From a virus, in the IMG/VR virus record IMGVR_UViG_3300033149_006357, positions 1 to 64,000 of that record: a stretch of 64,000 nucleotides of DNA, one strand, 5' to 3'. The translations under genes and the position numbers were made by a program. The first letter of the stretch is position 1; each line of letters begins with the position of its first letter. Of this stretch, positions 700 to 20,783 are shown piece by piece. The notes under the pieces were generated by a model. That model did no database searches. It was not told the origin of the DNA and saw only the letters and a list, made by a program, of their open reading frames with translations.

Positions 700-707
700 G
701 AGTCGAG

Positions 708-1117: not shown

Positions 1118-1294
1118 AAAGGAATGAAGAAGAGGCGGTATGGTTTGTGCTCGGATTGCTTTTGGTCTTTGGCATTCCAGTCATATCGCTAATAGCGCTC
1201 ATCATTAGCAATTGGGGGTAAGATGGAAAATGTGCATTTAGCAAGCGCGAATTTGTGTTGTCTTGATTGATCAACATCATCAGGAGGGTGTGAA

Positions 1295-2085: not shown

Positions 2086-2324
2086 CTATATTGTACAAGA
2101 GACCCAGTGGGGTGTAGCGAGCCGTATTATACGAGAAGACCCAGAATGAAGTAGCGAGCCTCATTGTACAAGAGATCCAGAAAATGGAAGCGAGCCACAC
2201 TATATGAGAGAACCAGAAAATGGAGCGAGCCGTGTAATTCGAGAGATCCACATATGGGTAAGCGATTATGTAAGAGACCCATTACCAGAGAGGTACCATA
2301 TAAGAGATCCACCACCCACTAGCG
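2084..2324 (+). ncRNA. TIGR (tandem interspaced guide RNA) array: 5 intact ~36-nt units plus 2 degenerate units
   Basis: Unit = AGCCN + 9-nt spacer A + AGAGA(C/T/A)CCA + 9-nt spacer B + AGCG. Units start at 2084, 2120, 2157, 2193 and 2228 (36, 37, 36, 35, 37 nt); partial loop repeats at 2273 and 2303. Lies directly upstream of a Nop-domain gene. Confidence 0.85.
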
Positions 2325-2345
2325 TGAAGGAGAGAGCCGATCATT

Positions 2346-2972
2346 ATGAAGCGTTATATTGCGTTGCAGAAGCATTTACAGAGAGTGCGTATCGGGCTGC
2401 AAAATCGTTTGGGCAGAGACGGTTTGTACAAAGAGGAGCTGTTGGAACTGTGCGAGTCTATTATTGGACTTGAGGACAGGCTCGATAAGGAGATCGAGCA
2501 AACTGCAAAAGAACACCCTATCTATCACGAGTTGCTAAAGATCAAGGGCATCGGGCCAAAACTTGCATCCAGACTGGTGGCGTACATAGATATCCGCAAA
2601 TGCAACACCGTCAGTCAGCTATGGAGATACGCGGGGTATGGGGTAGTAGACGGAAAAGCGGAGAGGGCCAAAAAGGGGGAAACTCGTCATTACTGTGGTG
2701 AGCTAAAGACCATCCTATACCTGGTAGCCCTGGCGTTTTTGAGGTCTCACAGCCCCTACACGCACCTATACTACGAAGAGCGCGAAAAGCATCCGGACCT
2801 CAAGCCGATGCACCAGCACCTCAGGGGCCTGCGCAAGATGATCAAGATGTTTCTGTCCCACCTATGGGAAAAGTGGCGCACCCTAGAAGGGCTGGAGACG
2901 CGCAAAGCATACGTGATAGAAGTACTCGGACACACACACATACACGAGGCAAAAGACTATGGATGGGAATAA
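2346..2972 (+). CDS. tasA: TasA-like Nop-domain RNA-guided DNA-binding protein (IS110/Nop5-related, no nuclease domain)
   Basis: Coiled-coil N-terminus, then LLKIKGIGPKLASRLVAYIDIRKCNTVSQLWRYAGY and GLRKMIKMFLSHLW. Only 208 aa, with no RuvC DEDD or HNH domain. Adjacent to the dual-repeat array. Confidence 0.82.
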   Translation: MKRYIALQKHLQRVRIGLQNRLGRDGLYKEELLELCESIIGLEDRLDKEIEQTAKEHPIYHELLKIKGIGPKLASRLVAYIDIRKCNTVSQLWRYAGYGVVDGKAERAKKGETRHYCGELKTILYLVALAFLRSHSPYTHLYYEEREKHPDLKPMHQHLRGLRKMIKMFLSHLWEKWRTLEGLETRKAYVIEVLGHTHIHEAKDYGWE

Positions 2973-3129
2973 ATGGCTTATGGCGCTGACCATTGTATGT
3001 ATGCTAGCAGATGGGCATCTTGGATGCAAAGCCGAACAAGGGCGGGAAGAGTACCAAAAAAAGCTAATGGAAGAAAAGCGTAAAAGATGGGAGGATCTAC
3101 TACGCTCTGCGGCAGCTACACAGGACTAG
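2959..3129 (+). CDS. small hypothetical protein (56 aa, MDGNKWLMALTIVCML...)
   Basis: Hand-translated ORF overlapping the tasA 3' end. Confidence 0.3.
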   Translation: MDGNKWLMALTIVCMLADGHLGCKAEQGREEYQKKLMEEKRKRWEDLLRSAAATQD

Positions 3130-3407
3130 ATGCCGGGCAGATGCATCCCTGCAGAATGAACCGGAAGACAGATCGAGGGACCGCTCGATGATCCCAATGT
3201 GGTGATATCACAAAGAGGAGGCGCCTGATGAGGGAGAGATAGGGACAAGGGCGCGGAGTGAATGCGAGGGGGCGGCATCCCGATGAGGCATGGGGGTGAT
3301 TTGGGGGGAGGAGGGGACTATCGCTGTCGTAGCAGTACGGTGCACGAGAAAACAGATGGGGGGTATTTGATAAATGACGATTAACGATGTACTTTTATGT
3401 ATAACTG

Positions 3408-3700
3408 GCGATACTTAGCGATACTTAGCGTGCCGTGACGATATTGTATTAACACTTGCGCAACCTAGGGATAACGTTAGCTAGTGTGTATACACAAACG
3501 ACAGTTTGCTATGCCTAGGGAATGCCAGATAGCACTTGCAATACTTTTTTAGCTGCAGCGCGGCTTGCAATACATAGCGTATATGTAAGTGCGATACGCG
3601 CCTTACATGTAAGACCGATACACTGATACGGCGATACACCGATACACCGATACGCGTAAGGGCAACATACTGTTACACTGTTACACGTAAGACCGATACG
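3408..3700. repeat. non-coding region of short direct repeats (candidate origin or genome-end region)
   Basis: GCGATACTTA x2, a run of (C)GATAC(A) units at ~3590-3700, TGTTACAC x2, GTAAGACCGATAC x2. Confidence 0.55.
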
Positions 3701-3822
3701 CCGGCAAGCCGCCAAACTAGTTGACATAAATAACCTTAAAATTGACTGAACGTAGATATTGCCAAGTAGCGCCCGCTCGAGGGCGCGTGAGGTTGTGTTA
3801 CGTTGTGTTCTGTAAAGCGCGT

Positions 3823-3851
3823 TTGCAAGTCTCGGCGCCCTGTGGTATACT
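3823..3851 (+). promoter_or_regulatory. sigma70-type early promoter with extended -10
   Basis: TTGCAA - 17 bp - TATACT, preceded by TGTGG. Confidence 0.75.
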
Positions 3852-3919
3852 TGGCGTGTGCGTGGAGGCGCATACGGCCGCTCTTTACCAGCCAAATAGA
3901 CTAGGAAGGAAGGAAAATC

Positions 3920-4711
3920 ATGTCGTACAAAGACCTAATCTCGGGCGCATCGGAAGAGTTTTTCGAGAGTGTCGATCTACGCAATGTGATCGAACGCTTC
4001 CCTACAATCACACTCTGTAGCGCGCTGTCGGCTGCTTGCAGCACTTGGCGTGAGTATGACGATGTGGAGGCGCAAGAGCAGATCGACGCGATCGAGAAAC
4101 AACTAGCCGCTCTTGCACAAGAGCGGCAAGGGCTCGATTTCTCAGTTTTTGCGCAAGCCTTGGCTGGGAAGGAAGCAAGCGAGATTGCCAGTATGCTTGC
4201 GGATCGAGAGAAGCGCCTTGCAGAGATTGCGAGCGAGCGAGAGAAACTTCAGGTCGAGAAGTCGCTTCTCCAAGAGCGACGCAAGACAGAAGCAGTACTT
4301 GCGTTCGTCAAGGCTTGTGGGGGGCGCCCGAGCACAGGGCGCGCGGCGACGTCCGATCTTACGGCTCTTGCGTGGTCTTGCAAAGCTTACGGAAGCGTTT
4401 GGACGATCTACGGATCACCTAGGTCTTGGCTTGTGTGGAAGGACAACAAGCCGGTCGCGTCAAGCAAGGACGTAGACATGGGTATCACAAGCCGAACTGG
4501 TTTTCGCAAGGTGATCTATGTCTTGGCCGGCAAGCTTGCCGGTTACGGCAAGGGTACCAATGCCTTGTCCAAGGCACACAAGGACAACATGTTGGGCGGC
4601 ATCCATGCCGGCGGATCGGCCGGCGTGGTAGACTTGTCCGATGTGGGCCCTTGGGCGCAAGGCTACACTGAGTTTTTCGCGCCCCCCAAGTCAAAGGACA
4701 AGACCAACTAG
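3920..4711 (+). CDS. first early gene; hypothetical protein with N-terminal coiled coil
   Basis: AAGGAAGGA SD; 263 aa; lies between a promoter and a terminator-like hairpin. Confidence 0.75.
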   Translation: MSYKDLISGASEEFFESVDLRNVIERFPTITLCSALSAACSTWREYDDVEAQEQIDAIEKQLAALAQERQGLDFSVFAQALAGKEASEIASMLADREKRLAEIASEREKLQVEKSLLQERRKTEAVLAFVKACGGRPSTGRAATSDLTALAWSCKAYGSVWTIYGSPRSWLVWKDNKPVASSKDVDMGITSRTGFRKVIYVLAGKLAGYGKGTNALSKAHKDNMLGGIHAGGSAGVVDLSDVGPWAQGYTEFFAPPKSKDKTN

Positions 4712-4726
4712 CAGAGTACCACTAGC

Positions 4727-4770
4727 AGAGCGCATGGCTATAGCGGCCGGCCATGCGCTCTTTCCCTTCT
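4727..4770 (+). terminator. putative intrinsic terminator
   Basis: 12-bp stem AGAGCGCATGGC/GCCATGCGCTCT followed by a pyrimidine tract. Confidence 0.55.
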
Positions 4771-4962
4771 CTGCTAGCGTAAAAGTTACCCATTGCAAAC
4801 TCTGGTACGTAAAGCAGACTATCACAAAGTGCAATGGGTAAAGCAGATCATCGCGCCTCACGGATTGTGTTAGCCATAATCCGGGGGGAACGATGGTTAA
4901 CAAAAGCATAATCGCGATGGTCGAGGCGAGCGCAGCGTATCCCCCACTATCACCCACAATGG

Positions 4963-5017
4963 TATCGTTACCATGGACGTGATAGTATCGTTACCATATC
5001 CACGGTGATATCGTTAC
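4963..5017 (+). repeat. three TATCGTTAC direct repeats with 23-bp period
   Basis: Copies start at 4963, 4986 and 5009. Confidence 0.7.
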
Positions 5018-5035
5018 ACTAGAAAGGAAATACTC

Positions 5036-5320
5036 ATGATCAAAAAAGAGATCCCGGTCAAGGTCGCGGTCCTGACAATCTCAAGGCAGATCTTGCGACA
5101 GGTTCCTTATCGTCCCATGCTGCCAAGAGATGATAGGGAAATCATTGGCTGGTTCTGGGCGGATATCAAGGGCATCCGCAATGGAACCAACATTTGCGTC
5201 TTGGTACAAGATCTTTCCGTGGGCGATCTGGCTGTAGAGGACGGTAGGATGGATCGTCGTACAGGAAGGGTCAGGGGCAGGTATGGAGAGGTCGTGCCGG
5301 ATCACATCTATGTCAGGTAG
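5036..5320 (+). CDS. hypothetical early protein
   Basis: AGAAAGGA SD, 94 aa. Confidence 0.65.
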   Translation: MIKKEIPVKVAVLTISRQILRQVPYRPMLPRDDREIIGWFWADIKGIRNGTNICVLVQDLSVGDLAVEDGRMDRRTGRVRGRYGEVVPDHIYVR

Positions 5321-5332
5321 AAAGGATCTAAC

Positions 5333-5671
5333 ATGATCGAGAATGTAGTTGATCTGCTATGGCATCCGCATTTCCATAGGTTGGTCGGGGCTCACATCGA
5401 GCTGGACCTTCCTGCGGTCGGCCTGGTCAGGGTCGACCAGAAACGCATGGTCGTGTGGGCCGATTTAGCCCACGACCTGGATCGGGAAGGATTCGACTTT
5501 GAAGCGGTCGAGAATTATCTCGGTCAAGGGTGGTACATTGTCAAGGAAGTCGATGGCAATGGTGGAAGGATCGTCGCCATAACTCCAGACTACGACACAG
5601 CCAAAACGATCGCGGAATGCGATGAGGAGCACCGCGATATATGGCGTAACGGGAAGTTTGTATCCTGGTAG
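5333..5671 (+). CDS. hypothetical early protein, paralog of 5801..6169
   Basis: Shares LDLPxVG, ADLAxDLD, GWYIVKEV, AECDExHRDIW with 5801..6169. Confidence 0.8.
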   Translation: MIENVVDLLWHPHFHRLVGAHIELDLPAVGLVRVDQKRMVVWADLAHDLDREGFDFEAVENYLGQGWYIVKEVDGNGGRIVAITPDYDTAKTIAECDEEHRDIWRNGKFVSW

Positions 5672-5800
5672 TCTTAATGCCCCGCCCGTCGGGCGATAAT
5701 AGGCGGGCCAAAGGGGATTCCGCTCTTTTCACGGGAAGAGCATGGCCAAAGCCCCCGGTCGCGCTCTGCCATATCTGCGTCAAGTAGAAAGGATCTTACA

Positions 5801-6169
5801 ATGAACGAGCACATTCTCGACCTCATTTGCAGCCCGTATTTCAGGGGGCTGCGTGAGGGTGGCGTCAGGCTCGATCTGCCCGTGGTGGGCAAGATCATCG
5901 TCGATCAGAACCGCGAGGTCATCCAGGCGGATCTTGCGGATGACCTCGACCAGGCCGGATATTCTGGCTGGCACATTCTTGATTTGGCGAAAGAGTACAT
6001 CGGTGAGGGCTGGTACATCGTCAAAGAGGTGAGACGAAACGCCGATGGTGCTATCACCGAGATCAGGCAAATCATTGCGATGGCAGACTATGCGACCGCC
6101 AAGGCTGTTGCCGAATGCGATGAAGCCCACCGCGATATCTGGTGCGGCGGGAAGCTCGTATCCTGGTAA
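5801..6169 (+). CDS. hypothetical early protein, paralog of 5333..5671
   Basis: Same GTAGAAAGGATCT leader and shared motifs. Confidence 0.8.
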   Translation: MNEHILDLICSPYFRGLREGGVRLDLPVVGKIIVDQNREVIQADLADDLDQAGYSGWHILDLAKEYIGEGWYIVKEVRRNADGAITEIRQIIAMADYATAKAVAECDEAHRDIWCGGKLVSW

Positions 6170-6341
6170 TCCATTATGCCCGCCCGTCGGCATTGTAGGC
6201 GGGCAGGAGCGATTGATATGGTGGTGGCCGTCATCCTTTTGTCCCCAGCGATTGGGCACGCAATCGCCGGGGTGTTCATTCGGTGGTACGAAAAGCACCA
6301 CCCAATCTATGTGCCGGATTGGGTGGTAGAAAGGATGCCGG

Positions 6342-6602
6342 ATGACTGAAAAACACCCAATCGTACATCGCATTGCCCTCGCGGTCACCGCCGCCGTATT
6401 TGAGGCGGTAGATGAGGCCGGGACGGATTACGACTCACTGTTCTGGGCGCTGACCAGGCGAGCCCGACCGATCGTGAAATCGCTGGAAACGATCGTCGGT
6501 CATCCTGTGGGGTTTGGGTTTGAGCTCACGGATGGCTGCTCGGTCGATGTATCCGTCGGCGAAAATGAGATCTTTGCAAGCATCGGAAAGAGGATCGCGT
6601 AG
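6342..6602 (+). CDS. hypothetical early protein
   Basis: GTAGAAAGGAT SD, 86 aa. Confidence 0.6.
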   Translation: MTEKHPIVHRIALAVTAAVFEAVDEAGTDYDSLFWALTRRARPIVKSLETIVGHPVGFGFELTDGCSVDVSVGENEIFASIGKRIA

Positions 6603-6723
6603 TAAGTGCTCAATCGGGCGTGTCCCCAAGGCGCTAGGCCGAATGGCCGTGAATGCGCACCACCCAGAATGCGCGCCCGATTGAAATCTCAAATCGGGAT
6701 CCGCACTAAGAGAGGGAAGTGAA

Positions 6724-6936
6724 ATGTGGCTCTCGGTAATAGGATTGGCGGTAGGCATAATCTGTATCGCAATCGCGGCTTGGGACTTGGCGGCCAACCA
6801 AATCCCTGTCGCCAAAGATTGTGATCGGCTATGCTATATGGCTGCGAAGGTCGCGCTGGACTTGCTCGACAAGGAAAACGTAGACGCGGCAAGGGATGTG
6901 CTCAAACGGCTATTGGAAGAACTTCAAGATTGCTAG
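6724..6936 (+). CDS. small membrane-anchored protein
   Basis: N-terminal hydrophobic helix MWLSVIGLAVGIICIAIAAW. Confidence 0.55.
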   Translation: MWLSVIGLAVGIICIAIAAWDLAANQIPVAKDCDRLCYMAAKVALDLLDKENVDAARDVLKRLLEELQDC

Positions 6937-7185
6937 CCGATAATCCCCAGAAATGGGAATCTGCCAGGGATGGGCGCTGTTCGGCAGACCAAGAGGAGGG
7001 CGAATGAATAGTTACAGAAGGTTCTGGCGCGTATGCGCCTGGAACAACAAGGGGAATCGCACCCGCGTCGTACTGAGGCCACGCCGGGAGCGGCGACGAG
7101 CAGCGCGGGCGCTATGGAAAGCCATCAAGAAGTGATATGGCCCGGGCGAGCTCCTGCACCGGGCAAAGAAGAAAGGAGCAAAGAA

Positions 7186-7509
7186 GTGGATCGGAAAGAG
7201 CTAGAAAATGCTGTACTGGATGCAGCGCTTGCGATTTGCAAGAGATGGGGGCCGACCGTCATCGCCCCCGGGATTGGCAAAGTTGAGAGATCGCGGGATG
7301 GATACTCTGCTTATGTGACGCCAGGGGCAGATGCGTGGGGAACCATCCCACTGGGATCGGAATGGCAGGCACCGTCGCTGCGCGATCTGGAGACCGCCGA
7401 AAGACTTGTCATTGGGATCGCGCGGTACTGTGCAAGTGAGGACTTTCTCGGCAAGGTCGCCGGGTCGATTAGACGGATGAAGGCGATAGCCAGGGCCATT
7501 CAATCGTAA
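7186..7509 (+). CDS. hypothetical early protein (ELENAVxDAA...WG family)
   Basis: GTG start after AAAGGAG; paralog of the N-terminal half of 7625..8197. Confidence 0.7.
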   Translation: MDRKELENAVLDAALAICKRWGPTVIAPGIGKVERSRDGYSAYVTPGADAWGTIPLGSEWQAPSLRDLETAERLVIGIARYCASEDFLGKVAGSIRRMKAIARAIQS

Positions 7510-7565
7510 CACGCACAACAATAGCCCATCGCTGCTTTTGCGGCTTTGCAGGCGATGGGAATATC

Positions 7566-7604
7566 AAGCCGCACCGGATTTCGATCTGGTGCGGCTTTTT
7601 TCTT
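7566..7604 (+). terminator. intrinsic terminator
   Basis: AAGCCGCACCGGAT-TTCG-ATCTGGTGCGGCTT followed by a T tract. Confidence 0.75.
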
Positions 7605-7624
7605 CTAACGAAAGCGAGTATCAG

Positions 7625-8197
7625 ATGATCGGAAAAGAGCGAATGGAACTAGAAAATGCGGTGTTCGATGCAGCCAAGACAGTCATCGAAAAATGGGGAA
7701 ATCCGATACGAACAGAGTTCGGCGAAATCTCCGGGTCGGAATCTGGGAATCAGATCAACATTCGTGAGGGCTGGTGGAGCACGGAAGTTGGTCGCTGGTG
7801 CGATCCCAACATGGACGATTTATGGCGTGCGAAGAGGGTCATCGAAACGATTGTATCGTATTGCGCGATAGAGGATTTTTCCAACAAAGTGTATGGGGCT
7901 GCCCAATGCTTGAGAGCAATCACCAACGCCATCGAGAGTAAAATGAGAAAAGTAAGCTCAGAAGTTAAGGACGTTTGGTGGATTAGATTGGGAAGGCGTG
8001 CCTCTACCGAGGCGCAAAAGAAATACGCCGAGCGCTTCGATGGCGAGATGTACAAACGAGCAACGGAAGGCTTATCTGGCGTGGCAGCCAATGTACTGAT
8101 CGACGATGCATTGGCCCTGTGCGGGTCACCCCATTACAAGCTGTCGCGCTCGGAATGGGATATGCCCCAAATCAAGTTCCTAGAACTGTTTTTGTGA
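7625..8197 (+). CDS. hypothetical early protein (ELENAVxDAA...WG family plus extra C-terminal domain)
   Basis: Shares ELENAV, KWG, YCAxEDF and AIxxAI with 7186..7509. Confidence 0.7.
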   Translation: MIGKERMELENAVFDAAKTVIEKWGNPIRTEFGEISGSESGNQINIREGWWSTEVGRWCDPNMDDLWRAKRVIETIVSYCAIEDFSNKVYGAAQCLRAITNAIESKMRKVSSEVKDVWWIRLGRRASTEAQKKYAERFDGEMYKRATEGLSGVAANVLIDDALALCGSPHYKLSRSEWDMPQIKFLELFL

Positions 8198-8321
8198 TTG
8201 AGAAAAGAAGATAGGATGAGACAGGTCGAATTGGTCAGATTCGAAGCGATTACCACGGCCGGGTCAAGCTCAGCCCTGGAACGTGGGCGTTCGAGCGCCC
8301 AATCCCAAGAAAGGAAGAAAG

Positions 8322-8618
8322 GTGATAACGAAAATCAGAGCCCCCGACGCCGATTGCGCCCGGCTGGCAATGGCCACCGTCGATGCCATTGAGGAATGGG
8401 GAGCAGGGTCGCAAGAGGAAGGATTGGAAACGGCGATAGACGCGGTGCTCCGTGATGAGCGGGATCGGATCTTCGAGATGCACAACATCTACCCGGCGAT
8501 CTCAATCGAGGTTGTCGATAGCCACCCGTCTGTGGGCGGCGATGGGTACATTGACATCGAGATCGATGAAGGGTACGCCGATATCGCCGTGTACGTTCAG
8601 TACCCATTCCCAAGATAA
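8322..8618 (+). CDS. acidic hypothetical protein
   Basis: GTG after purine-rich SD, inside ORF 8283..8618. Confidence 0.55.
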   Translation: MITKIRAPDADCARLAMATVDAIEEWGAGSQEEGLETAIDAVLRDERDRIFEMHNIYPAISIEVVDSHPSVGGDGYIDIEIDEGYADIAVYVQYPFPR

Positions 8619-8646
8619 GTCCAGAAATGGACTTGAAGGGGGCAGG

Positions 8647-9015
8647 ATGAAGAAACTGGTTGGAGCAATCACGGGGGTCGCGATGCTGGCCACGTTGAAA
8701 TGGGGAAACCCCGTTTCAACGCCAGAAGGATCAATCCTTAGGGTATCCCCGGATACGACAATGGTCAGCATCGAGTATCCCTACCACCGTTCGGTGATCG
8801 TCGATCCCGCCACACGCGAGAAAGATGTCGTCTGGGCGGCGAACGTGGTCGCGGCGGTCATTGACCGCTGTCTGGACGACTATCTGGTGAAAGAGCTCCG
8901 GGCGTCCGTGAAGCGGATGGTACGGGAGGCTGTGAAAAATGCCGATCTCGGAATGGGCGGAGGAAAATCTGAGGGAAACCATTTGAGAGGGAACGATGAA
9001 AAAGATAACATTTGA
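8647..9015 (+). CDS. hypothetical protein (distant KWGNP-family paralog)
   Basis: MKKLVGAITGVAMLATLKWGNPVSTPEGSI resembles EKWGNPIRTEFGEI in 7625..8197. Confidence 0.5.
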   Translation: MKKLVGAITGVAMLATLKWGNPVSTPEGSILRVSPDTTMVSIEYPYHRSVIVDPATREKDVVWAANVVAAVIDRCLDDYLVKELRASVKRMVREAVKNADLGMGGGKSEGNHLRGNDEKDNI

Positions 9016-9313
9016 ACAGATCGTATCGGGCGAGTTTGCCCGATCTGGCAAGACCTGGGGCGACCGAATCGCCCCACATATCCACTGCACAGATGGGGCG
9101 GTGCTATCGGTGCAGGCATCATCCCTCCACTATTGCTCGCCCCGCGATGACCATGGGCCATATCAGTCTGTGGAAGTGGGCTATCCTACTAGCCCGCCAC
9201 CCCCCTCGTGGGATCGATACCAGGATGGCGAGAATCCCGTTTGGGGATTCGTTCCCGTGAATCTCGTTAGGCAATTCATCGAGGATCACGGCGGCGAATC
9301 CGACCAGGGCTAG
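8996..9313 (+). CDS. conserved phage hypothetical protein
   Basis: SVQASxxHYCSPR...YxSVEVGYP...VWGFVPV pattern recalled from phage hypothetical proteins. Confidence 0.65.
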   Translation: MKKITFEQIVSGEFARSGKTWGDRIAPHIHCTDGAVLSVQASSLHYCSPRDDHGPYQSVEVGYPTSPPPPSWDRYQDGENPVWGFVPVNLVRQFIEDHGGESDQG

Positions 9314-9332
9314 CACCCAGGGATGAGGATAC

Positions 9333-9590
9333 ATGTTGATCTCGGAATGGGTGGACGAAAATCTGACAGAGGAAGAGATCGCCGATATCGCCACATATGG
9401 GGCGCTCGGGCAACCAGGGCTCACATACGATGGTGAAATCCTGGAAATCTACGACCTCTGCCACAGAGACATTTGGGACAGCCTGGAAGACGATATCTCT
9501 CTGGCAGGGATAGACCATCTCGAGCAGTTGGAGATCGGGCTGACTATCCAGGCGGTCGAGAGAGAGTGCACGAGGAGGATACAATGTTGA
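9333..9590 (+). CDS. small acidic protein, candidate DNA mimic
   Basis: 21 D/E versus 4 R and no K in 85 aa; GAGGA SD. Confidence 0.6.
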   Translation: MLISEWVDENLTEEEIADIATYGALGQPGLTYDGEILEIYDLCHRDIWDSLEDDISLAGIDHLEQLEIGLTIQAVERECTRRIQC

Positions 9591-9973
9591 TCCGATGTGT
9601 TGACAAAATGGCTTACCGCCGAAATGGCGAAGGCTGGGAAAGGGTGCAAATCTCGGTTGGAGATACCGTCTGCGGCGAGATAGAGGACATCGTGGCTGCG
9701 CCTCGAGATCGTGGCGTGAAGCTCATCGTGCAGGATGGTCGAGTGATCGCAACACGTCACGAGCCATATTGCGAGGCGCCGCGCCCGACAAACCGCGTGC
9801 GGATTATTGGAGACACCATCATGAGGTGCTGGACGGATGGTACGGCGCGACCGTCCAGGGCGCTCATGGCGGACGATGTGATCGATTTTGCCGATCTCGA
9901 ATCTTTGCTGGACATCGAGGTCGAGGACGGCAGGTGGATCCGCGTCGAAAATGGAGTGGTAATAGTGCAATGA
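9584..9973 (+). CDS. hypothetical protein with internal duplication
   Basis: GAGGAGG SD; two similar beta-rich halves (LIVQDGRVI / IRVENGVVI). Confidence 0.6.
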   Translation: MLIRCVDKMAYRRNGEGWERVQISVGDTVCGEIEDIVAAPRDRGVKLIVQDGRVIATRHEPYCEAPRPTNRVRIIGDTIMRCWTDGTARPSRALMADDVIDFADLESLLDIEVEDGRWIRVENGVVIVQ

Positions 9974-10055
9974 CAACGTACATCTGCATGCGCAAGCCCA
10001 AAGCCAGACGTATCGACGGCATGGATCACTACGCGCTCTTCAAGGATTCGTACAA

Positions 10056-10364
10056 ATGAGATACCTGATTAACTTTGGGCCGCCGCTGACGGCCGAGGAA
10101 AAAGATACTGTATCCGGTTATCGCCTTCTACAAGCAGAGGGCGATGACGCGGAAGAAAAGATCCGCAGCCTCGGCCGCGACGGTGATTGGTGGTGGACAT
10201 CCGACATCACCGTCCGATTGCCGAACGATCCGATAGAGGCCGCGATCATCGCACTCAAGATTGGCGATGCAATGCCGCTTTGGCCGACTGTCATCGACCT
10301 GCGTGACAACAGCCTCATCGATCTTGAAGCTATTGCGGTATGGGGCGCCCCGCGCTGCGGATGA
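10056..10364 (+). CDS. Csx15-like protein
   Basis: YLINFGPPLT...WWTSDITVRLP...AAIIALKI...WPTVIDLR...LIDLEAI follows the Csx15 pattern (LNFSHPLT...WQTxxILVNxP...AAxLLAEL...FPxIxRLR...IINLQAV) as recalled. Confidence 0.55.
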   Translation: MRYLINFGPPLTAEEKDTVSGYRLLQAEGDDAEEKIRSLGRDGDWWWTSDITVRLPNDPIEAAIIALKIGDAMPLWPTVIDLRDNSLIDLEAIAVWGAPRCG

Positions 10365-10371
10365 GGAGGAA

Positions 10372-10830
10372 ATGATGGGACATCTGACCGACATCGCTTA
10401 CGCGGCCGCATCAGACATCGACGTGGCCATGCGGATGGCCAATGGCGACTGGGCGGCGATGGCCATAGCACGATTGGCCAAGGTCGACCTGGAGGCCGGA
10501 TTAGAGGCCGCAAGAGCGGTAGAAAAGGCAAGGAAGGTGAAATATCTGGTCAATTTCGGAAAGCGCTTATCGAAGTCAGAGCGCGAAGTGTTTCTGACTT
10601 ACGCGGTCGTTCAGCCGACCGGAAACACAGTAGATGAAAAGATCGACAATTGCCATTTCACGACAGGGCAATGGCAAGATGCCGATCTCTACATCATGCT
10701 GCCGGATGATCCAGTCGAGGCCGTCATTCTCATGCTGAAGATTGCAAAGCGTGTCAAGGAATTGCCGGATATCGTGGTCTTGTCCGATGGTTATCCAAAG
10801 TTCATTCCAACAGAGGAGGTCATGTCATGA
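10372..10830 (+). CDS. Csx15-like protein with N-terminal helical extension (alternative GTG start at 10537)
   Basis: GAGGAGG SD. YLVNFGKRLS...FTTGQWQDADLYIMLPDDPVEAVILMLKI is a clear paralog of 10056..10364. Confidence 0.55.
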   Translation: MMGHLTDIAYAAASDIDVAMRMANGDWAAMAIARLAKVDLEAGLEAARAVEKARKVKYLVNFGKRLSKSEREVFLTYAVVQPTGNTVDEKIDNCHFTTGQWQDADLYIMLPDDPVEAVILMLKIAKRVKELPDIVVLSDGYPKFIPTEEVMS

Positions 10831-11141
10831 ACGTAACCGTGAAGGTAAGCGATCTGGTGTTCGATATGGAAACCCTTCATGCCGCCATTGCCGTGGCAAA
10901 GGCGAATGATGGGGAAGTCCGCATCGATGGCAATACGGTCGACATCTCCGGCCTCTATACAGAGGTCGACATGTGCAGGGCAAGACTGCGTTACGTCGAC
11001 CTCGAGGAGAGATTGTACGATGTCGAGCGCGAACTCTTGACGCTCAATCCGTATGATTTCATCGACCGCGGCCTTCTGCCCGAAGATCATCCATACGCGC
11101 TGCGGCTGGTGACCAAGGAGGATAGTGTTGTCTACATCTAG
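10827..11141 (+). CDS. hypothetical protein
   Basis: GAGGAGG SD; start overlaps previous stop. Confidence 0.6.
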   Translation: MNVTVKVSDLVFDMETLHAAIAVAKANDGEVRIDGNTVDISGLYTEVDMCRARLRYVDLEERLYDVERELLTLNPYDFIDRGLLPEDHPYALRLVTKEDSVVYI

Positions 11142-11210
11142 GCTTGTTCGCCCGCCGGGACAGGTTGACGCCCTGCGATGGCGGGCCACACCGATAAAAG
11201 GAGACCGAAA

Positions 11211-11474
11211 GTGAAGCCAAGCGAATGGGCGAAAGTGATCGGGGCGATGCTTATCGCCGCAGCGGACAACCCGGATATGTTCAACTTTGAGGAAGACGAT
11301 TCCGGGATGTCGCCACACGACAAATCGATCATCAACATCGCACGCCGGCTCTTTCCCGATGAGCCAGTGCACAAGCAGGCGCTGTACGCCGCGACCGCCG
11401 CGTACATCGTGGACACGATCTTGGTAAAGATGCCAAAGGTTGAGGCCGCGATCGATGGCCTCGTGGAGGATTAA
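11211..11474 (+). CDS. hypothetical protein
   Basis: GTG after AAGGAG inside ORF 11178..11474. Confidence 0.55.
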   Translation: MKPSEWAKVIGAMLIAAADNPDMFNFEEDDSGMSPHDKSIINIARRLFPDEPVHKQALYAATAAYIVDTILVKMPKVEAAIDGLVED

Positions 11475-11477
11475 GAC

Positions 11478-11756
11478 ATGGGCGAGCTGACAAAGTGGTT
11501 CGAAGATGTGGCGAGGGTCATCGTCCTTGCCACGAACATCGATGGGTTCCTGGAGAACATTGCGGATGTCGCCGGTCCCCACGCCATGGCAATAGCGAAA
11601 GCGACGGATGTCGTCATGCCAGACGCAGATGCAATGAAAAAGGCATGCGTCGCTACCGTAGCCCTGATGACGGTCGAGTCGATGGCGGGTCACACAGAAT
11701 CCGTACTGAGCAGCGCGATCCGGCTAGACCGCCATCTGAGATCGGTGATGAACTAG
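11478..11756 (+). CDS. hypothetical protein
   Basis: GGAGGA SD, 92 aa. Confidence 0.6.
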   Translation: MGELTKWFEDVARVIVLATNIDGFLENIADVAGPHAMAIAKATDVVMPDADAMKKACVATVALMTVESMAGHTESVLSSAIRLDRHLRSVMN

Positions 11757-11799
11757 CATCATCGGGCTAGCATCCCGTTACCACTGCCAAGGTATAATT

Positions 11800-12333
11800 A
11801 TGTATCCAGAACTTTGCTCAAACTGTAATGAGATGTTGGACAGAATGGCGGCAGATCGCGGCATCCACAAGATCGAGGCCGCCGAGATAGCATGGAGAGA
11901 CCGCCTTTACTGCGGCGGGCGAAAATGCGCATCGCCGGAGCTCCTATCGGAGACAGACGATTGCGTAGCGACCGCCGTCGTCGATGGCCAGCACTGGACA
12001 GCAACGCTGGAAAAGAACGCCATCGTATGGGAGCTCAACGGCAACGTTGTTGATACATGGCGCGATTGCTCACAAATCACGTTTCGTGAGATCGTCGGGA
12101 TGAGGCCGCCCTTGAAGAGGGAAGACTTCCACAAAGTGTCAAAGATATCCATTGATATGCTCAAGGGCGTGACGTACACGCCGCCCAAGAAAGTATCCGT
12201 TCCAGGTGTGGACCTGTGGGATGTGTACATGTGGGTTGACACAATGACCGATAATGACATCGAAATGGAGGGCCTTGATACCTCGAAAAAAGTCATTGTG
12301 TTAGACGACTCAATCTACATAAGGAGAAAATAA
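11800..12333 (+). CDS. hypothetical protein with Cys pairs
   Basis: 177-aa ORF; stop overlaps next start. Confidence 0.55.
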   Translation: MYPELCSNCNEMLDRMAADRGIHKIEAAEIAWRDRLYCGGRKCASPELLSETDDCVATAVVDGQHWTATLEKNAIVWELNGNVVDTWRDCSQITFREIVGMRPPLKREDFHKVSKISIDMLKGVTYTPPKKVSVPGVDLWDVYMWVDTMTDNDIEMEGLDTSKKVIVLDDSIYIRRK

Positions 12334-12692
12334 TGGAGAGGTCTGAGGATAAACAATGGTACGACGCCATTCTTGCAATGACAAGCAACCCGCACAACAT
12401 CTACATCGATCGGTTCAGCGATGGCGTCGCGATCACGATCTCTGCGGCGGGCGCGAGGATGTCCCTCATAATCCCCAATGACATGGAGCTCAAATGGACA
12501 TCAAAGGGGTGCTCGCATCCTGAGACGGAAAACGAGGTCTTGTACGTAGATGGTTCCGCAATGCAGCGCGTCTGCTGCAAACATTGCGGATTTATCATCC
12601 GGCCTTGGCGCGCATGCAAGACGCCCTGGCCGATAGATAGGGAAGCAGAGGCACACATAATGGGAGGTCTGGATGAAATTCTTGAAGATTGA
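12333..12692 (+). CDS. hypothetical protein, possible Zn ribbon
   Basis: AAGGAG SD; CSH...CKHC. Confidence 0.6.
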   Translation: MERSEDKQWYDAILAMTSNPHNIYIDRFSDGVAITISAAGARMSLIIPNDMELKWTSKGCSHPETENEVLYVDGSAMQRVCCKHCGFIIRPWRACKTPWPIDREAEAHIMGGLDEILED

Positions 12693-13023
12693 CCTGAAGC
12701 CGTGGCAACCACCGGTCTCATCAGCCGAGGCGGTCGCCATTATCTGGGCGCTGCCGACAGCGCTGGAGTTGATGCGTGACATCTTTCCAGATGTCCGCAT
12801 CGTAGAAAGGGGGAAAAGGTACTTCAAAATCAGCGGACCGACTGAATCGGTCAAACAGGTCGCGTCGAGGTACGCCGACATCCAATACGCGGCCTTGGGA
12901 TGTGGAGCACGTATCGTCGGAGATGCCATCGACATTCGATACGTGCCAAAGTCGGCGCTAGAAGCGATGGCTAAGGGAGTCCCGATGAGGGACATCATAT
13001 CTCATTTCTCAGAAGGAGAATAG
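12673..13023 (+). CDS. hypothetical protein immediately upstream of the Ubl gene
   Basis: GGAGG SD, 116 aa. Confidence 0.6.
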   Translation: MKFLKIDLKPWQPPVSSAEAVAIIWALPTALELMRDIFPDVRIVERGKRYFKISGPTESVKQVASRYADIQYAALGCGARIVGDAIDIRYVPKSALEAMAKGVPMRDIISHFSEGE

Positions 13024-13025
13024 CG

Positions 13026-13214
13026 ATGAAGGTCACGATCGTAGGCGAGGGCAGGGAAATCACGTTGGAGGATGGGTTCACCCTGGAAGAACTGGTCGAA
13101 CAGGGCATCGTCCCATCCGACTACCGGGTCTTCGACAGCAACGGGAATGAAGTTGCTTCCGACGAGGAGGTGACCGGCGACCTGGTTGCCGCGCCCGTTA
13201 CCAAGAACGCCTAA
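13026..13214 (+). CDS. ubiquitin-like beta-grasp protein (ThiS/MoaD-like Ubl)
   Basis: 62 aa, MKVTIVGEGREITLEDGFTLEELVEQ...NGNEV...DLVAAPVTKNA; AAGGAG SD; first gene of an E2-JAB-E1 cluster. Confidence 0.7.
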   Translation: MKVTIVGEGREITLEDGFTLEELVEQGIVPSDYRVFDSNGNEVASDEEVTGDLVAAPVTKNA

Positions 13215-13220
13215 GTAAGC

Positions 13221-13246
13221 AGGGCGGGTCAATGGCGACCCGCCCT
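13221..13246 (+). promoter_or_regulatory. stem-loop between Ubl and E2 genes
   Basis: Perfect 10-bp stem AGGGCGGGTC/GACCCGCCCT, no U tract. Confidence 0.55.
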
Positions 13247-13261
13247 CATCGAGGTATTATC

Positions 13262-13885
13262 ATGTATGCACTTGCAGATTCTGAATCTACCCTGGAGGCG
13301 ATGGTAAGCGGTGAATGGGAAGATAAGGGGGTGTTCTTTGTCGCCAACGTCTTCCCAGAAGACCCAGACGGGCATGTGCATCAGCACATTATGGGCATCG
13401 CCCTGGGCGCTAAGTTTTTGTTCTCCCAATGGTGTTATCGAGAGCAGCACCCGCACCGCGCGAGCGACCGGTGCTTGTGCATCGGTTCAGGGGCGACTCA
13501 CGCGCGACTTCTTATCGATCGCGGTCACCTCACGCAGGCAATCGCGCTTGTCATCCGGCACCTCAACGAGGTGAACCTGGAAGATTGCTACAATCCCTAC
13601 GATGAGTTCAGCCCGTGCTCGAATTGCGGCTTGTATACGTCCACGCCGCACAAATGCAATGGATGCGGGGATTACTTTTGTGACAATTGCATGGAAGGCG
13701 ACTATTGCCTGACATGCATAGAATATGTCTGCCCGGAATGCGGGATATACGATCCGAACACGTGCATATTGTGCGGCCAAACGCACTGCACATGCGGATA
13801 CAGCGAGTGCGTGTGCTCGGCCCGTTTTCCGGATTACGAAATGATGGTGGAGGTCTTGAAAGATCATGGCATTGAGATACATTGA
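13262..13885 (+). CDS. prokaryotic E2 (UBC-like) enzyme fused to a Cys-rich multi-Zn-finger region
   Basis: HPH-x7-C(IG) catalytic signature (QHPHRASDRCLCIG) and following helices; C-terminal CxxC repeats. Start chosen after GAGGT SD; 13232 is the alternative. Confidence 0.7.
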   Translation: MYALADSESTLEAMVSGEWEDKGVFFVANVFPEDPDGHVHQHIMGIALGAKFLFSQWCYREQHPHRASDRCLCIGSGATHARLLIDRGHLTQAIALVIRHLNEVNLEDCYNPYDEFSPCSNCGLYTSTPHKCNGCGDYFCDNCMEGDYCLTCIEYVCPECGIYDPNTCILCGQTHCTCGYSECVCSARFPDYEMMVEVLKDHGIEIH

Positions 13886-14522
13886 GGAAGCAGCGCCGAC
13901 AAAATTGATCGTCACCGATAATGTAGCACACAAGATCGCGGTGCTCATGGCATCCGAGCCGAACGTGGAAATCGGCGGCGCTGGATACGTGGAAGGCAAC
14001 GAATGGACGCGCATCTGGTGCGGTACTACAGAGGCCAGCGTCGGCGAACACGAGATGTCCGCCGAGTCATTGGCCAACATCACGATGGAAGCCCTGAAGG
14101 CCGGATTGAAGCCCGCAGGGCTCAGATTGTACTGGCATACACATGGCGTCCATGGATTTGCCCCATCGTTTTCGCAGGTGGATTGGGACACAATCTATAA
14201 GCAAGCATCCCACGGGCTAAGGATCGTCAACGTCGTGTTTGGGGGTCTCACCAAATATGATGCGGTCGAGGCATGGAAAATCACGCCCGCAAGATATGTG
14301 GTGCGCAATGTAGAACTAGAATGGAGGCTGAGAGATGATAAGGGTTATTGGGATTGGGCATCTCGGTTCCTGGACGGCACTGGCATTAGAAAGAAGAGGA
14401 TGCCAGGTGTCAGTCTGGGATATGGACACGGTGGAGCCGCGCAATCTCCCGGTGTCCCCGTACACAAAGGACCAGGTTGGCCTTTTGAAGATAGAGGCGA
14501 TTGGTCAGCTTGGGACCTTTGA
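13866..14522 (+). CDS. JAB/MPN+ (JAMM) metallo-isopeptidase
   Basis: N-terminal EIGG glutamate plus WHTHG...SFSQVD (HxH...SxxD). Confidence 0.85.
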   Translation: MALRYIEEAAPTKLIVTDNVAHKIAVLMASEPNVEIGGAGYVEGNEWTRIWCGTTEASVGEHEMSAESLANITMEALKAGLKPAGLRLYWHTHGVHGFAPSFSQVDWDTIYKQASHGLRIVNVVFGGLTKYDAVEAWKITPARYVVRNVELEWRLRDDKGYWDWASRFLDGTGIRKKRMPGVSLGYGHGGAAQSPGVPVHKGPGWPFEDRGDWSAWDL

Positions 14523-14874
14523 GACCAATGGGATGTGGATGGGAAACCCGCTGGACGGGATCGTGATATGCGCCGTCGATAACAACACGACCAGACAGCG
14601 CATCCGGGAGGCCACGGATGGGATCTTCATCGACGTGAGGTCTGCAGGAAAGTTTTGCGAGGTCTTCTGTCTGGATGGATCCCCAGAAAAAGAGGCCAGA
14701 TGGGATGCGTCATTCAGTGGCGTAATGGCGAGCGACGGGTGCGGGTCGTTCGCGTCTTCTGGCCTGTGGGTCGCATCCGTTGTGGCGGACATGATAGACG
14801 ACATCCAGGAAGGGAAAAGTGTACCCGCCCATATCATGAGAACAGGATACGGAGTGATCCAATGGAAGCCTTGA
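14335..14874 (+). CDS. E1-like ThiF/MoeB adenylyltransferase
   Basis: VIGIGHLGS, WDMDTVEPRNL, KIEA, CAVDN..TR, IDVR and candidate catalytic Cys in SDGCG; GGAGG SD. Confidence 0.88.
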   Translation: MIRVIGIGHLGSWTALALERRGCQVSVWDMDTVEPRNLPVSPYTKDQVGLLKIEAIGQLGTFETNGMWMGNPLDGIVICAVDNNTTRQRIREATDGIFIDVRSAGKFCEVFCLDGSPEKEARWDASFSGVMASDGCGSFASSGLWVASVVADMIDDIQEGKSVPAHIMRTGYGVIQWKP

Positions 14875-14934
14875 TCATACTGATCGGAATTGGAGTGTGG
14901 ATTATCGGGTTGGCGATCATACACGAGGTGTTCG

Positions 14935-15186
14935 ATGAACGTTAGAATCGCTTTCATGGAGAAGGAAAGCGCCGTCGAATTCGGTCCGGATGACGAGATT
15001 GACAGATCGCAGATCCGGGTACACGCGTCCATATTTCTCGGACATCTGAGCAGTCTCGACATCCCGCGCAAGTTTCACGGGTCGTTTCGGCTTCAGGAAT
15101 GGAAGGACCACTTCCAGGAAAGAGCCGGATACGACCCATATCCCGATGCCGACGGCGACGAGATGTGCTTTTTCGCTCTGACATAG
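14935..15186 (+). CDS. hypothetical protein
   Basis: GAGGTG SD before MNVRIAF. Confidence 0.5.
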   Translation: MNVRIAFMEKESAVEFGPDDEIDRSQIRVHASIFLGHLSSLDIPRKFHGSFRLQEWKDHFQERAGYDPYPDADGDEMCFFALT

Positions 15187-15194
15187 GAGGCAGG

Positions 15195-15416
15195 ATGTAC
15201 AGGCCATTGATTGTGCTCGATCGTGGCAAGCTGATTGCATACGACATCCGCGATGGGAAAAAGGTCGTCCCGGTGCCGGAGCAGATGCAGTGGATGAAAT
15301 TGCTATGCTTTCCCAAAGCATTCTGTCCCGCGCACCTGGATTGGGACGGAGACCTACCGAGGGCGGTGTGGGTTATCAGTGAGCTTCACGGTCTCGGAAG
15401 AAGGCTGTGTAGATGA
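15195..15416 (+). CDS. hypothetical protein
   Basis: AGGAGG SD before MYRPLIVLD. Confidence 0.5.
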   Translation: MYRPLIVLDRGKLIAYDIRDGKKVVPVPEQMQWMKLLCFPKAFCPAHLDWDGDLPRAVWVISELHGLGRRLCR

Positions 15417-15607
15417 ACACGTTTATCGTAGATGGAAAGGAGTACGGGGTCAAGGATGGAAAGTGTGTTCACGGAGAAGGGGACGAGATACAATCCGTGA
15501 GACACACCGGATACGGGATGTTCATTCTTGTGAACAACGCATGGTATCAAGTGCTCAGATATTATAACGGGATAGCATGCAAAAGAGTGGATTCAAAACG
15601 CAACTGA
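15413..15607 (+). CDS. hypothetical protein
   Basis: ATGA overlap with previous gene; ends before terminator. Confidence 0.5.
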   Translation: MNTFIVDGKEYGVKDGKCVHGEGDEIQSVRHTGYGMFILVNNAWYQVLRYYNGIACKRVDSKRN

Positions 15608-15611
15608 CCAG

Positions 15612-15642
15612 GATGGGGGCGATTCGCCCCCATCATTTTTTT
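15612..15642 (+). terminator. intrinsic terminator
   Basis: GATGGGGGCG-ATT-CGCCCCCATC then A and T7. Confidence 0.85.
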
Positions 15643-15691
15643 ATCGTCCATGCAAACCGGACGCAGAAACGCAGACTATCGGAGATGTAAG

Positions 15692-16747
15692 ATGATATTG
15701 GTAACAGGAGACTGGCACATCAGGGACAAAGAAGGGCTGGATGCACTTGACCGAGTTATCCAAGTGGCGTATAATAGACGGCCCGACCTGGTTGCGGTAT
15801 GTGGGGATGTGTTCCACTCATCGCGGCCGGGCAGCGAGATGGAGAAAGAGGTAGCCAGGCGATTGAAAGAGCTGTCGAAAATGTGCCCCGTGGTTGGCGT
15901 GAGCGGCAACCATGATTCTACATCGAGAGCCGCCGCGACGGACACGATGGATATCCTCTCGCCCTCCATATCCATCGCATCGGCCCCGAGGATAGTACAG
16001 GCCAGGGGATACTATATCGTCTGCATCCCCTGGCTGAGACCGAATCAAATCCTCGCAAACGAGCCCCGCCTGCAGCGCAACGCTGCAAACGCAAAGCTTG
16101 CATCTACTGTCGAGGCTATGGTAACAGGATATCTCACGGATGCCCCGGATGGCGCAGTAAAAGTGCTCATAGCACATTGTACCACCCTCGGAGCGGATTA
16201 TGGCGGGTACATCCCGACATCCCTTGGCGGGGAGCTGATCTGGAACACAGATTGGTTCTCCGGCTACGATGTCGTTTGTCTCGGACACATCCACAAAGCA
16301 CAGATCGTAGCGCCAAATGCCGCGTACTGCGGCAGCACCTATCGCAATACCATCGCCGAGAGGGATGTGCCAAAAGGCGTCTACATATGGGATGGCAAGT
16401 GGGAATGGGAGCCGATCTGGGCGCGCCCGATGTACCTGGTAGAAGGGACGCCAGATGAGGTCGAGATTCAGGTCGCTACGCTACCAGATGGCGCAGACGT
16501 GCAGGTCAGGGTACAACTGCAGCCACATGACGACTGGTACGGGATGGATGGGTCCAGGTTCCACAAGTTCCAGGTTCACCAGGTCATCGAGCGGGAGGGC
16601 CGGCCGTTCGCGCAAGATCCCTGGCAATCGATGAGCGTGCCAGAGGCGCTGAGGAGGTACTTTGAGATCATCGGAAAGGAGGAAAGCGAGATCGACCTAC
16701 TTATGTCCGCATTCGCAAAACTGGAGGAGTCCAAAAATGGACAATAA
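15692..16747 (+). CDS. sbcD: Mre11/SbcD-like exonuclease (metallophosphoesterase)
   Basis: GDWH, GDVFH, GNHD, AH, GHIH and YCGS motifs. Confidence 0.85.
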   Translation: MILVTGDWHIRDKEGLDALDRVIQVAYNRRPDLVAVCGDVFHSSRPGSEMEKEVARRLKELSKMCPVVGVSGNHDSTSRAAATDTMDILSPSISIASAPRIVQARGYYIVCIPWLRPNQILANEPRLQRNAANAKLASTVEAMVTGYLTDAPDGAVKVLIAHCTTLGADYGGYIPTSLGGELIWNTDWFSGYDVVCLGHIHKAQIVAPNAAYCGSTYRNTIAERDVPKGVYIWDGKWEWEPIWARPMYLVEGTPDEVEIQVATLPDGADVQVRVQLQPHDDWYGMDGSRFHKFQVHQVIEREGRPFAQDPWQSMSVPEALRRYFEIIGKEESEIDLLMSAFAKLEESKNGQ

Positions 16748-17210
16748 AAAGACATGTCCCGTATGTGGGTATCGGGGATACAAACGACATCGCGGGAAAT
16801 ATTGTCCCGAATGTGGCGCCCGGTTGTACATCTACAAGCCGAAAAAGAAAGACAAGCCTTCCGTGTGGGTGGCCGAGGAGAAAAATCTGGGCGAACTTGT
16901 GGATGCGCTGGAAAGATACATCGCATCGGAATACGTTATCCCAAGATTCAGGTTTTCAAATCGCCTGCCAGAACTCGCGATGGCACGCACGCTGTACGAA
17001 AAGTGCAATTTCAATCAGAGCCTGGCCCTGCTTGTCATACGCAGGTACTTCACAACAAGCAGGAAGATAATATGGTATAGACCCAAGTCGATGGCGCAAG
17101 TCCTGTGGGATAACTCGCAGGGCGGGTGCTTCAGCACCGCGCTATCGCTGGCAAAAATGGATCACGCAAACGTGATCCAGAATCTAGAACAAGTAAAGGA
17201 GATGATATGA
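16737..17210 (+). CDS. Zn-ribbon protein
   Basis: GGAGGAG SD; CPVCG...CPECG. Confidence 0.6.
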   Translation: MDNKKTCPVCGYRGYKRHRGKYCPECGARLYIYKPKKKDKPSVWVAEEKNLGELVDALERYIASEYVIPRFRFSNRLPELAMARTLYEKCNFNQSLALLVIRRYFTTSRKIIWYRPKSMAQVLWDNSQGGCFSTALSLAKMDHANVIQNLEQVKEMI

Positions 17211-20753: not shown

Positions 20754-20783
20754 ATACGGGGGAGGTCTAGGCCTCCCCCGTAT
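20754..20783. terminator. hairpin between convergent early and late transcription units
   Basis: 12-bp stem ATACGGGGGAGG/CCTCCCCCGTAT. Confidence 0.6.

Follow-up and report, generated by a model that had tools for sequence, protein, structure and literature searches.

A diverged tandem pair of remote Csx15 homologues without the known catalytic residues in an uncultured tailed phage

Two adjacent genes, here called P1 and P2, lie at positions 10,056 to 10,830 of a 64,000-nucleotide stretch of viral DNA (the window), which forms the first 64 kb of the complete 77,079-bp IMG/VR virus record IMGVR_UViG_3300033149_006357. The locus raises the question of whether a phage has taken up proteins of the Csx15 type and, if so, what such proteins do to a host immune system that signals with cyclic oligonucleotides. 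An earlier inspection of the letters (the sequence-only reading) had noted a likeness of both gene products to Csx15, a protein of type III CRISPR systems, and had proposed a ring nuclease or a host-derived cyclic oligoadenylate (cOA) sponge, possibly a heterodimer, that would form a new class of anti-CRISPR (Acr) protein. Our analysis suggests that P1 and P2 are indeed remotely related to Csx15 and that they may interfere with cyclic-oligonucleotide immunity in a non-enzymatic way, as a sponge or as a filament-capping decoy. We give this reading a probability of roughly 0.42. The features on which the argument draws are the following.

10056..10364, + strand: P1 gene, an open reading frame (ORF) of 102 amino acids (aa), MRYLINFGPPLT..., isoelectric point (pI) 4.3, histidine-free, a tail-less Csx15-like protein
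10071..10079, + strand: P1 N6-F7-G8 loop after strand β1, at the position of NFSH in Csx15, with Gly in place of Ser and Pro in place of the catalytic His
10218..10232, + strand: P1 LPNDP motif where β3 ends and α3 starts; no other segment is as well conserved with Csx15, and it forms the core of the predicted dimer interface
10363..10369, + strand: GAGGAGG ribosome-binding site of P2, overlapping the P1 stop codon
10375..10830, + strand: P2 gene, an ORF of 151 aa as called in public collections, with an alternative ATG at 10372, pI 5.05
10375..10536, + strand: P2 N-terminal extension, 54 aa, Ala-rich, predicted to form three helices, without a family match
10537..10827, + strand: P2 Csx15-like domain, 97 aa, β1-α1-β2-α2-β3-α3-β4-β5, without the Arg-bearing helix α5
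10552..10560, + strand: P2 N-F-G loop, NFGK where Csx15 has NFSH
10699..10713, + strand: P2 LPDDP motif, core of the predicted dimer interface

By their sequences, P1 and P2 are true paralogs that have strongly diverged. BLASTP aligned them without gaps over 84 aa at 33% identity (E 4e-18), and the adjacency and coordinates given in the sequence-only reading were exact. When the complete 77-kb genome was searched with a profile, P1 and P2 were the only copies returned, and there was no third. P1 has an AAGGA Shine-Dalgarno-like site 9 nt upstream and ends in a TGA stop codon at 10362-10364. Since the ribosome-binding site of P2 overlaps this stop, the arrangement suggests that the two genes are translationally coupled. 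The P2 stop codon overlaps the ATG of the downstream gene (ATGA, 10827-10830). P2 is not a plain second copy, as the helical extension of 54 aa precedes its Csx15-like domain. An in-frame GTG is located at 10537, exactly at the start of this domain, with AAAGG 8 nt upstream (10523-10539), and it is conceivable that P2 is made both with the extension and, as a short isoform, without it. A separate small gene for the extension was considered and rejected, there being no stop codon ahead of the domain. In both paralogs the first strand is followed by N-F-G and then P (P1) or K (P2); the replacement of the NFSH motif by NFG(P/K), as first noticed, is thus read directly in the sequence.

The relationship to Csx15 was examined with profiles and with structure models. 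The only match of P2 was to the NCBIfam model for Csx15, NF040560 (E 0.0017, positions 39-97 of the 125-position model), at 18.6 bits, which falls below the curated cut-off of 35 bits. NF040560 was likewise the only hit when all six frames of the entire virus record were searched (E 1.3e-4). The Csx15 model of PADLOC (PDLC01376), which was built separately, also matched P2 (E 4.7e-4, 18.2 bits). P1 alone did not hit the NCBIfam or PADLOC Csx15 models. When a profile of P1 and the P2 domain was run with HMMER against 1.84 billion representative proteins at E <= 0.001, the sole non-self match was a protein designated P0003 (E 6e-4). P0003 is a Csx15 by NF040560, with 61 bits against the cut-off of 35, and it also matches Csx15 in solved structures, namely 9teu, 9tet and, within CbCash, the Csx15 domain of 9ylu. 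Direct comparison of P1 with P0003 by BLASTP revealed 40% identity over 53 aa (E 2e-9). P0003 has 116 aa and is encoded on a 1.1-Mb JGI contig; it is itself short, ending ~25 model positions early, and reads DLAG where Csx15 has NFSH. Alignment of the pair by hhalign to a profile of P0003 and a mini-Csx15, P0004, gave a probability of 95.9% (E 5e-9); P1 by itself reached 94% and P2 by itself 84%. The N-terminal motif YL[IV]NFG..L[TS], which lies outside the core aligned by the hidden Markov models (HMMs), resembles MIILNFSPAPPIT of P0004.

The structure models gave a more mixed picture. The ESM Atlas model of P2 has a predicted local distance difference test (pLDDT) score of 0.82, and its three nearest clusters are Chloroflexota families of 125-126 aa, one of which is named Csx15 (template modelling (TM) scores 0.55/0.65, residues 57-152); the fourth-nearest structural neighbour is a cluster bearing SAVED. 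The corresponding model of P1 is poor (pLDDT 0.51), with generic neighbours only. An AlphaFold2 (AF2) model of the P2 domain reached a pLDDT of 77.6 and had no match of meaningful Z score to CARF, SAVED or Csx15 in a structure library that ends on 2026-04-08 and may lack 9TET and 9TEU, the Csx15 structure paper being dated 17 April 2026. The Z scores of published Csx15 models against structures of CARF and SAVED themselves barely exceed 5. An AF2 model of P2 made without an alignment was poor (pLDDT 46.7) and was discarded. Searches of Pfam, PHROGs and Protein Data Bank (PDB) sequences with P1, P2 or their profile gave as best matches ToxS (E 0.21), phrog_26168 (E 0.17) and PDB entries at E >= 0.6, and neither SAVED (Pfam PF18145) nor AcrIII-1/Crn2 (DUF1874, PF08960) had a match in the genome at E <= 10. 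Collectively, these results make it very probable that P1 and P2 are remotely homologous to Csx15. The likeness first noted is thereby borne out by NF040560, PADLOC, the profile hit to P0003 and hhalign, as a remote one that stays under the cut-offs; as for a match of profile or structure, hhalign and the Csx15 clusters of ESM Atlas supplied one and the AF2 model did not. Full membership of the Csx15 family does not follow from the sequences, which score below the cut-off and lack the residues and helix α5 of the family.

The part of the Csx15 fold that has been retained is the β3-α3-β4 core, which reads LP(N/D)DP(I/V)EA.I..LKI.......P. Positions shared by the two paralogs are concentrated at the C-terminal ends of strands β1-β4 (NFG, Q..G, LPxDP and LxDG), and this crown of conserved loops may correspond to the usual ligand crown of Rossmann-like sensors. 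Helix α3 is also where the two proteins are predicted to meet. Complex prediction for P1 and P2 gave an interface score (ipSAE) of 0.72, compared to 0.02 for the best control. Of 80 solved complexes 58 attain this score, and of 110 mismatched pairs 2 do so; as the alignments supplied were our own, these counts hold only roughly. The runs agreed in at least 81% of contacts, with a partner pLDDT of at least 83. The predicted interface is pseudo-symmetric and is formed via α3 by residues 55-68 of both chains together with residues 32, 79 and 81. In the Csx15 dimer of CbCash, E207 and R264 form a reciprocal salt bridge (PMC13462974), and a transitive alignment places these two residues at positions 32 and 81. 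The model supports a Csx15-type P1:P2 dimer through α3.

From these observations a mechanism can be proposed. P1 and P2 would descend from the Csx15 fold, a Rossmann-like cOA module related to CARF and SAVED, and would pair via α3. The resulting heterodimer would be pseudo-symmetric and of the Csx15 type, and would amount to a SAVED-like unit encoded in two parts by separate genes. The dimer would act stoichiometrically on host immunity based on cyclic-oligonucleotide signalling, either type III CRISPR or a system resembling the cyclic-oligonucleotide-based antiphage signalling system (CBASS). As a sponge, it would sequester the signal molecule in a remodelled head-face pocket; taken alone, we consider this sub-mechanism doubtful. 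As a decoy, its acidic head face, with Asp58 and Glu61 at the dyad, would imitate a head loaded with cyclic tetra-adenylate (cA4) and dock on the Arg-rich tail face of host sensors of the Csx15 or SAVED type, and the tail-less dimer would then end the head-to-tail polymerisation needed by Cash, Lon-SAVED/CalpL or TIR-SAVED. Such capping would explain why the assembly helix is kept and the ligand residues are lost, and why the dyad is acidic and the tail missing. We rate the capping sub-mechanism as somewhat less probable than the sponge, and we found no published example of cyclic-nucleotide immunity being countered by poisoning of a signalling polymer.

By analogy, two characterised proteins may serve as precedents for non-enzymatic interference: PfCsx15, a non-catalytic cA4 sponge, and CbCash, whose Csx15 domain reads NFLQ, has no His in this motif and still binds cA4, held by R204, F241 and F275 (PMC13462974). 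A third precedent comes from a second phage contig with a His-less, tail-less mini-Csx15 (L003, contig Ga0114925_10000189). Its gene is present in a single copy at 8241-8549, encodes 103 aa and is also present on L004. The protein scores 30.3 bits on NF040560, has NFSP instead of NFSH and lacks both the central His and the C-terminal helix. The contig carries terminase (10239-11621) and portal (15636-17210) genes, and the mini-Csx15 gene is located between genes for helix-turn-helix (HTH) proteins.

Members of the Csx15 family have a Rossmann-like fold of five strands and five helices, the last of which is the C-terminal α5, and a dimer is their basic unit. The residues on which Csx15 depends have been mapped by experiment. 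The N-terminal His of the head face (H8 in HaCsx15 and CsCsx15, H13 in CliCsx15, H11 in PfCsx15) is catalytic and stacks on adenine, and catalysis is abolished by H8A or H13A and likewise by R125A and R118A (bioRxiv 10.64898/2026.01.21.700848; 10.64898/2026.10.26.761840). In PfCsx15, H11A abolishes cA4 sequestration. The central His of the LHGxxGHFP motif (H82 in PfCsx15, H90 in CliCsx15) is required for cA4-induced oligomerisation, and the Arg triad of helix α5 (R118/R122/R125 in HaCsx15, R116/R120/R123 in PfCsx15) forms the tail face, which completes the composite active site in head-to-tail filaments.

Several findings weigh against interference with cyclic-oligonucleotide signalling. P1 and P2 are without every side chain experimentally shown to matter in Csx15. 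The position of the catalytic His (H8/H11/H13) is occupied by Pro in P1 and Lys in P2; the central His (H82/H90) is aligned to Gly70 of P1 and Ala70 of P2; and R118, R122 and R125 are gone with helix α5, as the domains end 10-20 residues past β4. Consistent with this, the HMM match of P2 stops at model position 97 of 125, with no Arg-rich helix beyond. The adenine contacts R204 and F241 of CbCash correspond to Gly29 and Asp58 in a transitive alignment via P0003. Both proteins are acidic (pI 4.3 and 5.05), with the conserved Asp58 and Glu61 at the predicted dyad, and are therefore a poor fit to a polyanionic ligand. Every HMM score lies under the curated cut-offs, with P1 having no direct HMM hit, and for cousins as close as P1 and P2 the complex predictor does not tell a heterodimer apart from homodimers. 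Orthologues of P1 and P2 were not found in the protein, IMG/VR and 1.84-billion-representative searches, and purifying selection therefore cannot be shown.

Word-index searches with P1, P2 and P0003 returned the queries themselves only. Pattern scans of IMG/VR with P2, with the P1 and P2 profile and with the P0003 and P0004 profile revealed no relatives, nor did two scans of GTDB genomes. No match was obtained by tblastn of P0003 against plasmids and GenBank phages or by blastn of the gene-pair region against phages.

These losses bear differently on the individual claims. The missing α5 and tail face argue, as far as sequence can tell, against homotypic cA4-induced head-to-tail filaments, and a canonical sponge that sandwiches cA4 appears unlikely. 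The cOA sponge of the sequence-only reading is accordingly weakened, with the equivalent of H11 and the adenine-contacting Arg and Phe of CbCash missing, and what survives of it is the doubtful, non-canonical form described above. The suggestion of catalytic alteration was supported, as Pro or Lys replaces the catalytic His and the central His and α5 are missing. The proposed heterodimer is supported by the controlled complex prediction, which does not tell it apart from homodimers.

Nearly as likely as interference with cyclic-oligonucleotide immunity is an exapted Csx15/CARF-like fold that serves an early-phage role unrelated to cyclic-nucleotide signalling, for example as a host-protein binder, a scaffold or a regulator. 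Conservation would in that case be limited to the structural core and the dimer helix. The loss of all known ligand and catalytic residues fits this explanation well, as does the fact that the likeness to Csx15 resides mainly in the β3-α3-β4 core, the same region as the predicted dimer interface. P1 and P2 are also acidic like all of their small early-gene neighbours, none of the ten neighbouring genes checked belongs to a known family, and no orthologues or conserved context were found. Against exaptation, what has been published on the Csx15 family and on its fusions links them to cyclic-nucleotide signalling. The paralogs have drifted to 33% identity, yet their conservation centres on the loop crown after β1-β4, the place at which folds of this kind bind ligands, and disarmed mini-Csx15 genes also occur in other phages, as on the contig described above.

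Chance similarity, in which a common β-α-β pattern in an unrelated small α/β protein would mimic Csx15 without true kinship, is improbable. It draws on the score of 18.6 bits against a 35-bit cut-off, an aligned core of only about 51-59 residues, the AF2 model without a CARF, SAVED or Csx15 match at a meaningful Z score, and the P1 model of pLDDT 0.51 with its generic neighbours. Two HMM libraries, an exhaustive profile search, hhalign probabilities of 94-96% and the ESM Atlas neighbours nevertheless all point to Csx15; YLINFGPPLT resembles the P0004 motif outside the HMM-aligned core; and the structure library, which predates the Csx15 structure paper, may lack 9TET and 9TEU.

The weakest explanation is an active viral ring nuclease, in line with the AcrIII-3 idea, that degrades cyclic oligoadenylates from cA3 to cA6 or CBASS signals: the family includes the ring nucleases HaCsx15, CsCsx15 and CliCsx15, AcrIII-3 has been put forward for viral homologues and the evidence of homology is the same, but P1 and P2 are highly unlikely to cut cyclic nucleotides because the catalytic His (now Pro or Lys), the central His of LHGxxGHFP (now Gly or Ala) and α5 with all three arginines are missing, P1 contains no histidine at all, and the composite active site requires a tail face that neither protein has.

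The genomic setting agrees with a role in counter-defence. The source genome is that of a complete, uncultured tailed phage of 77 kb: the record has direct terminal repeats, and the genes for the large terminase, portal and major head protein are all on the − strand of the window. The terminase has only ~27% identity to that of any cultured phage. One related phage was found, an uncultured genome of 73.8 kb (G001) whose major capsid protein is 59% identical and which shares structural genes, some replication genes and the genes at 16.6-20 kb with the phage of the window. By tblastn, window positions 1-16,600 had no counterpart in G001, the only related phage, and a search of G001 revealed no Csx15-like gene. 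This left-hand early arm, which holds P1 and P2 within a long + strand series of small acidic genes without family matches, looks like a hypervariable, exchangeable accessory region. Such a location fits counter-defence cargo without proving it. The pair shows no association with Cas10 or type III CRISPR, being located in an early operon of a complete phage genome without cas genes.

Other features of the window were recorded in passing. A Ubl-E2-JAB-E1 operon at 13026-14874 falls inside the early arm that G001 lacks. The replication block is flanked on one side by a gene for an SbcD-like nuclease subunit at 15650-16747 (phrog_100, E 7e-22) and on the other by a gene for a 432-aa metallophosphoesterase at 20767-22065 (phrog_20266, E 6e-41), on the strand opposite to the SbcD-like gene. 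ARAGORN called an 87-nt tRNA-Gln(CTG) at 34322-34408 (− strand), within a − strand ORF of 1674 aa at 30251-35275; either the call is false or a large structural gene contains a tRNA-like element at this site.

If interference without catalysis is the role of P1 and P2, phages keep Csx15-fold proteins that have lost the catalytic and stacking faces as binders or polymer cappers rather than as ring nucleases. A SAVED-like pseudo-dimer could then be built from two separate genes, a point of relevance to the published proposal that a Csx15 duplication gave rise to SAVED. With its two genes of about 100-150 codons each, the pair is easy to express and could serve as a compact test of how much of the Csx15 fold is needed for ligand binding and how much for assembly. 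If the proteins have no such role, they are a warning against labelling every phage Csx15-like ORF an anti-CRISPR.

The nearest known systems help to place the pair. P1 and P2 resemble HaCsx15, CsCsx15 and CliCsx15 (9TEU) in the β3-α3-β4 sequence, the N-terminal strand-loop motif, the small stand-alone α/β architecture and an equivalent predicted dimer helix and β4. In contrast to canonical Csx15, their domains are about 25-30 residues shorter, have about 8-12 residues deleted around α1-α2 and are without α5 and the R118/R122/R125 tail face; the genes are phage-encoded, lie away from cas genes and occur as two diverged copies rather than as one homodimer-forming gene. PfCsx15 (9TET), a non-enzymatic orphan that is not CRISPR-linked, is the closest functional model of a stoichiometric binder. 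It keeps S9/H11, H82 and R116/R120/R123 and sandwiches cA4 between stacked dimers, whereas these residues and the tail face are all missing from P1 and P2.

The general idea of a viral Csx15 has already been published. The vCsx15 proteins, encoded by Lokiarchaeota virus Skoll and also found in more than 20 metagenomic viral sequences, received the provisional name AcrIII-3 in October 2026 in a study without experiments on them (bioRxiv 10.64898/2026.10.26.761840), so that the new Acr class of the sequence-only reading was overstated. P1 and P2 are likewise virus-encoded Csx15 homologues with a proposed counter to cyclic-nucleotide immunity, a role that is putative in both cases. vCsx15 was found by BLAST, models closely onto HaCsx15 and is proposed to be a ring nuclease. 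P1 and P2 are far more diverged: they are not found by BLAST-level searches, are tail-less, tandem and without the catalytic His, and do not show the combination of HaCsx15-like structure and ring-nuclease residues on which AcrIII-3/vCsx15 is based. The present locus differs from the published case in that two diverged copies stand in tandem, both functional faces have been lost and one copy carries an N-terminal extension.

SAVED domains, including the viral ring nuclease vSAVED (AcrIII-2), and duplicated Csx15 proteins of a single chain are pseudo-dimers of two diverged Csx15- or CARF-like halves, like the proposed P1:P2 dimer. P1 and P2 differ from them in being two separate polypeptides with no Pfam SAVED match and no catalytic His. 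The Schlafen-Csx15 protein CbCash (9YLU) also has a His-less motif (NFLQ compared to NFGP and NFGK) and has dimer contacts at equivalent positions, and as in P2, its Csx15 domain is C-terminal and is preceded by an accessory part. In P2 this part is a 54-aa helical segment rather than an effector, and the positions aligned to the cA4 contacts R204 and F241 of CbCash are Gly and Asp. The phage sponges Acb2, Acb4, Tad1 and Tad2 have folds unrelated to those of P1 and P2, and their binding pockets have been demonstrated, whereas any pocket of P1 and P2 is putative. These four sponges are small, abundant early proteins that neutralise immune second messengers by stoichiometry, and this is the mode that we propose for P1 and P2.

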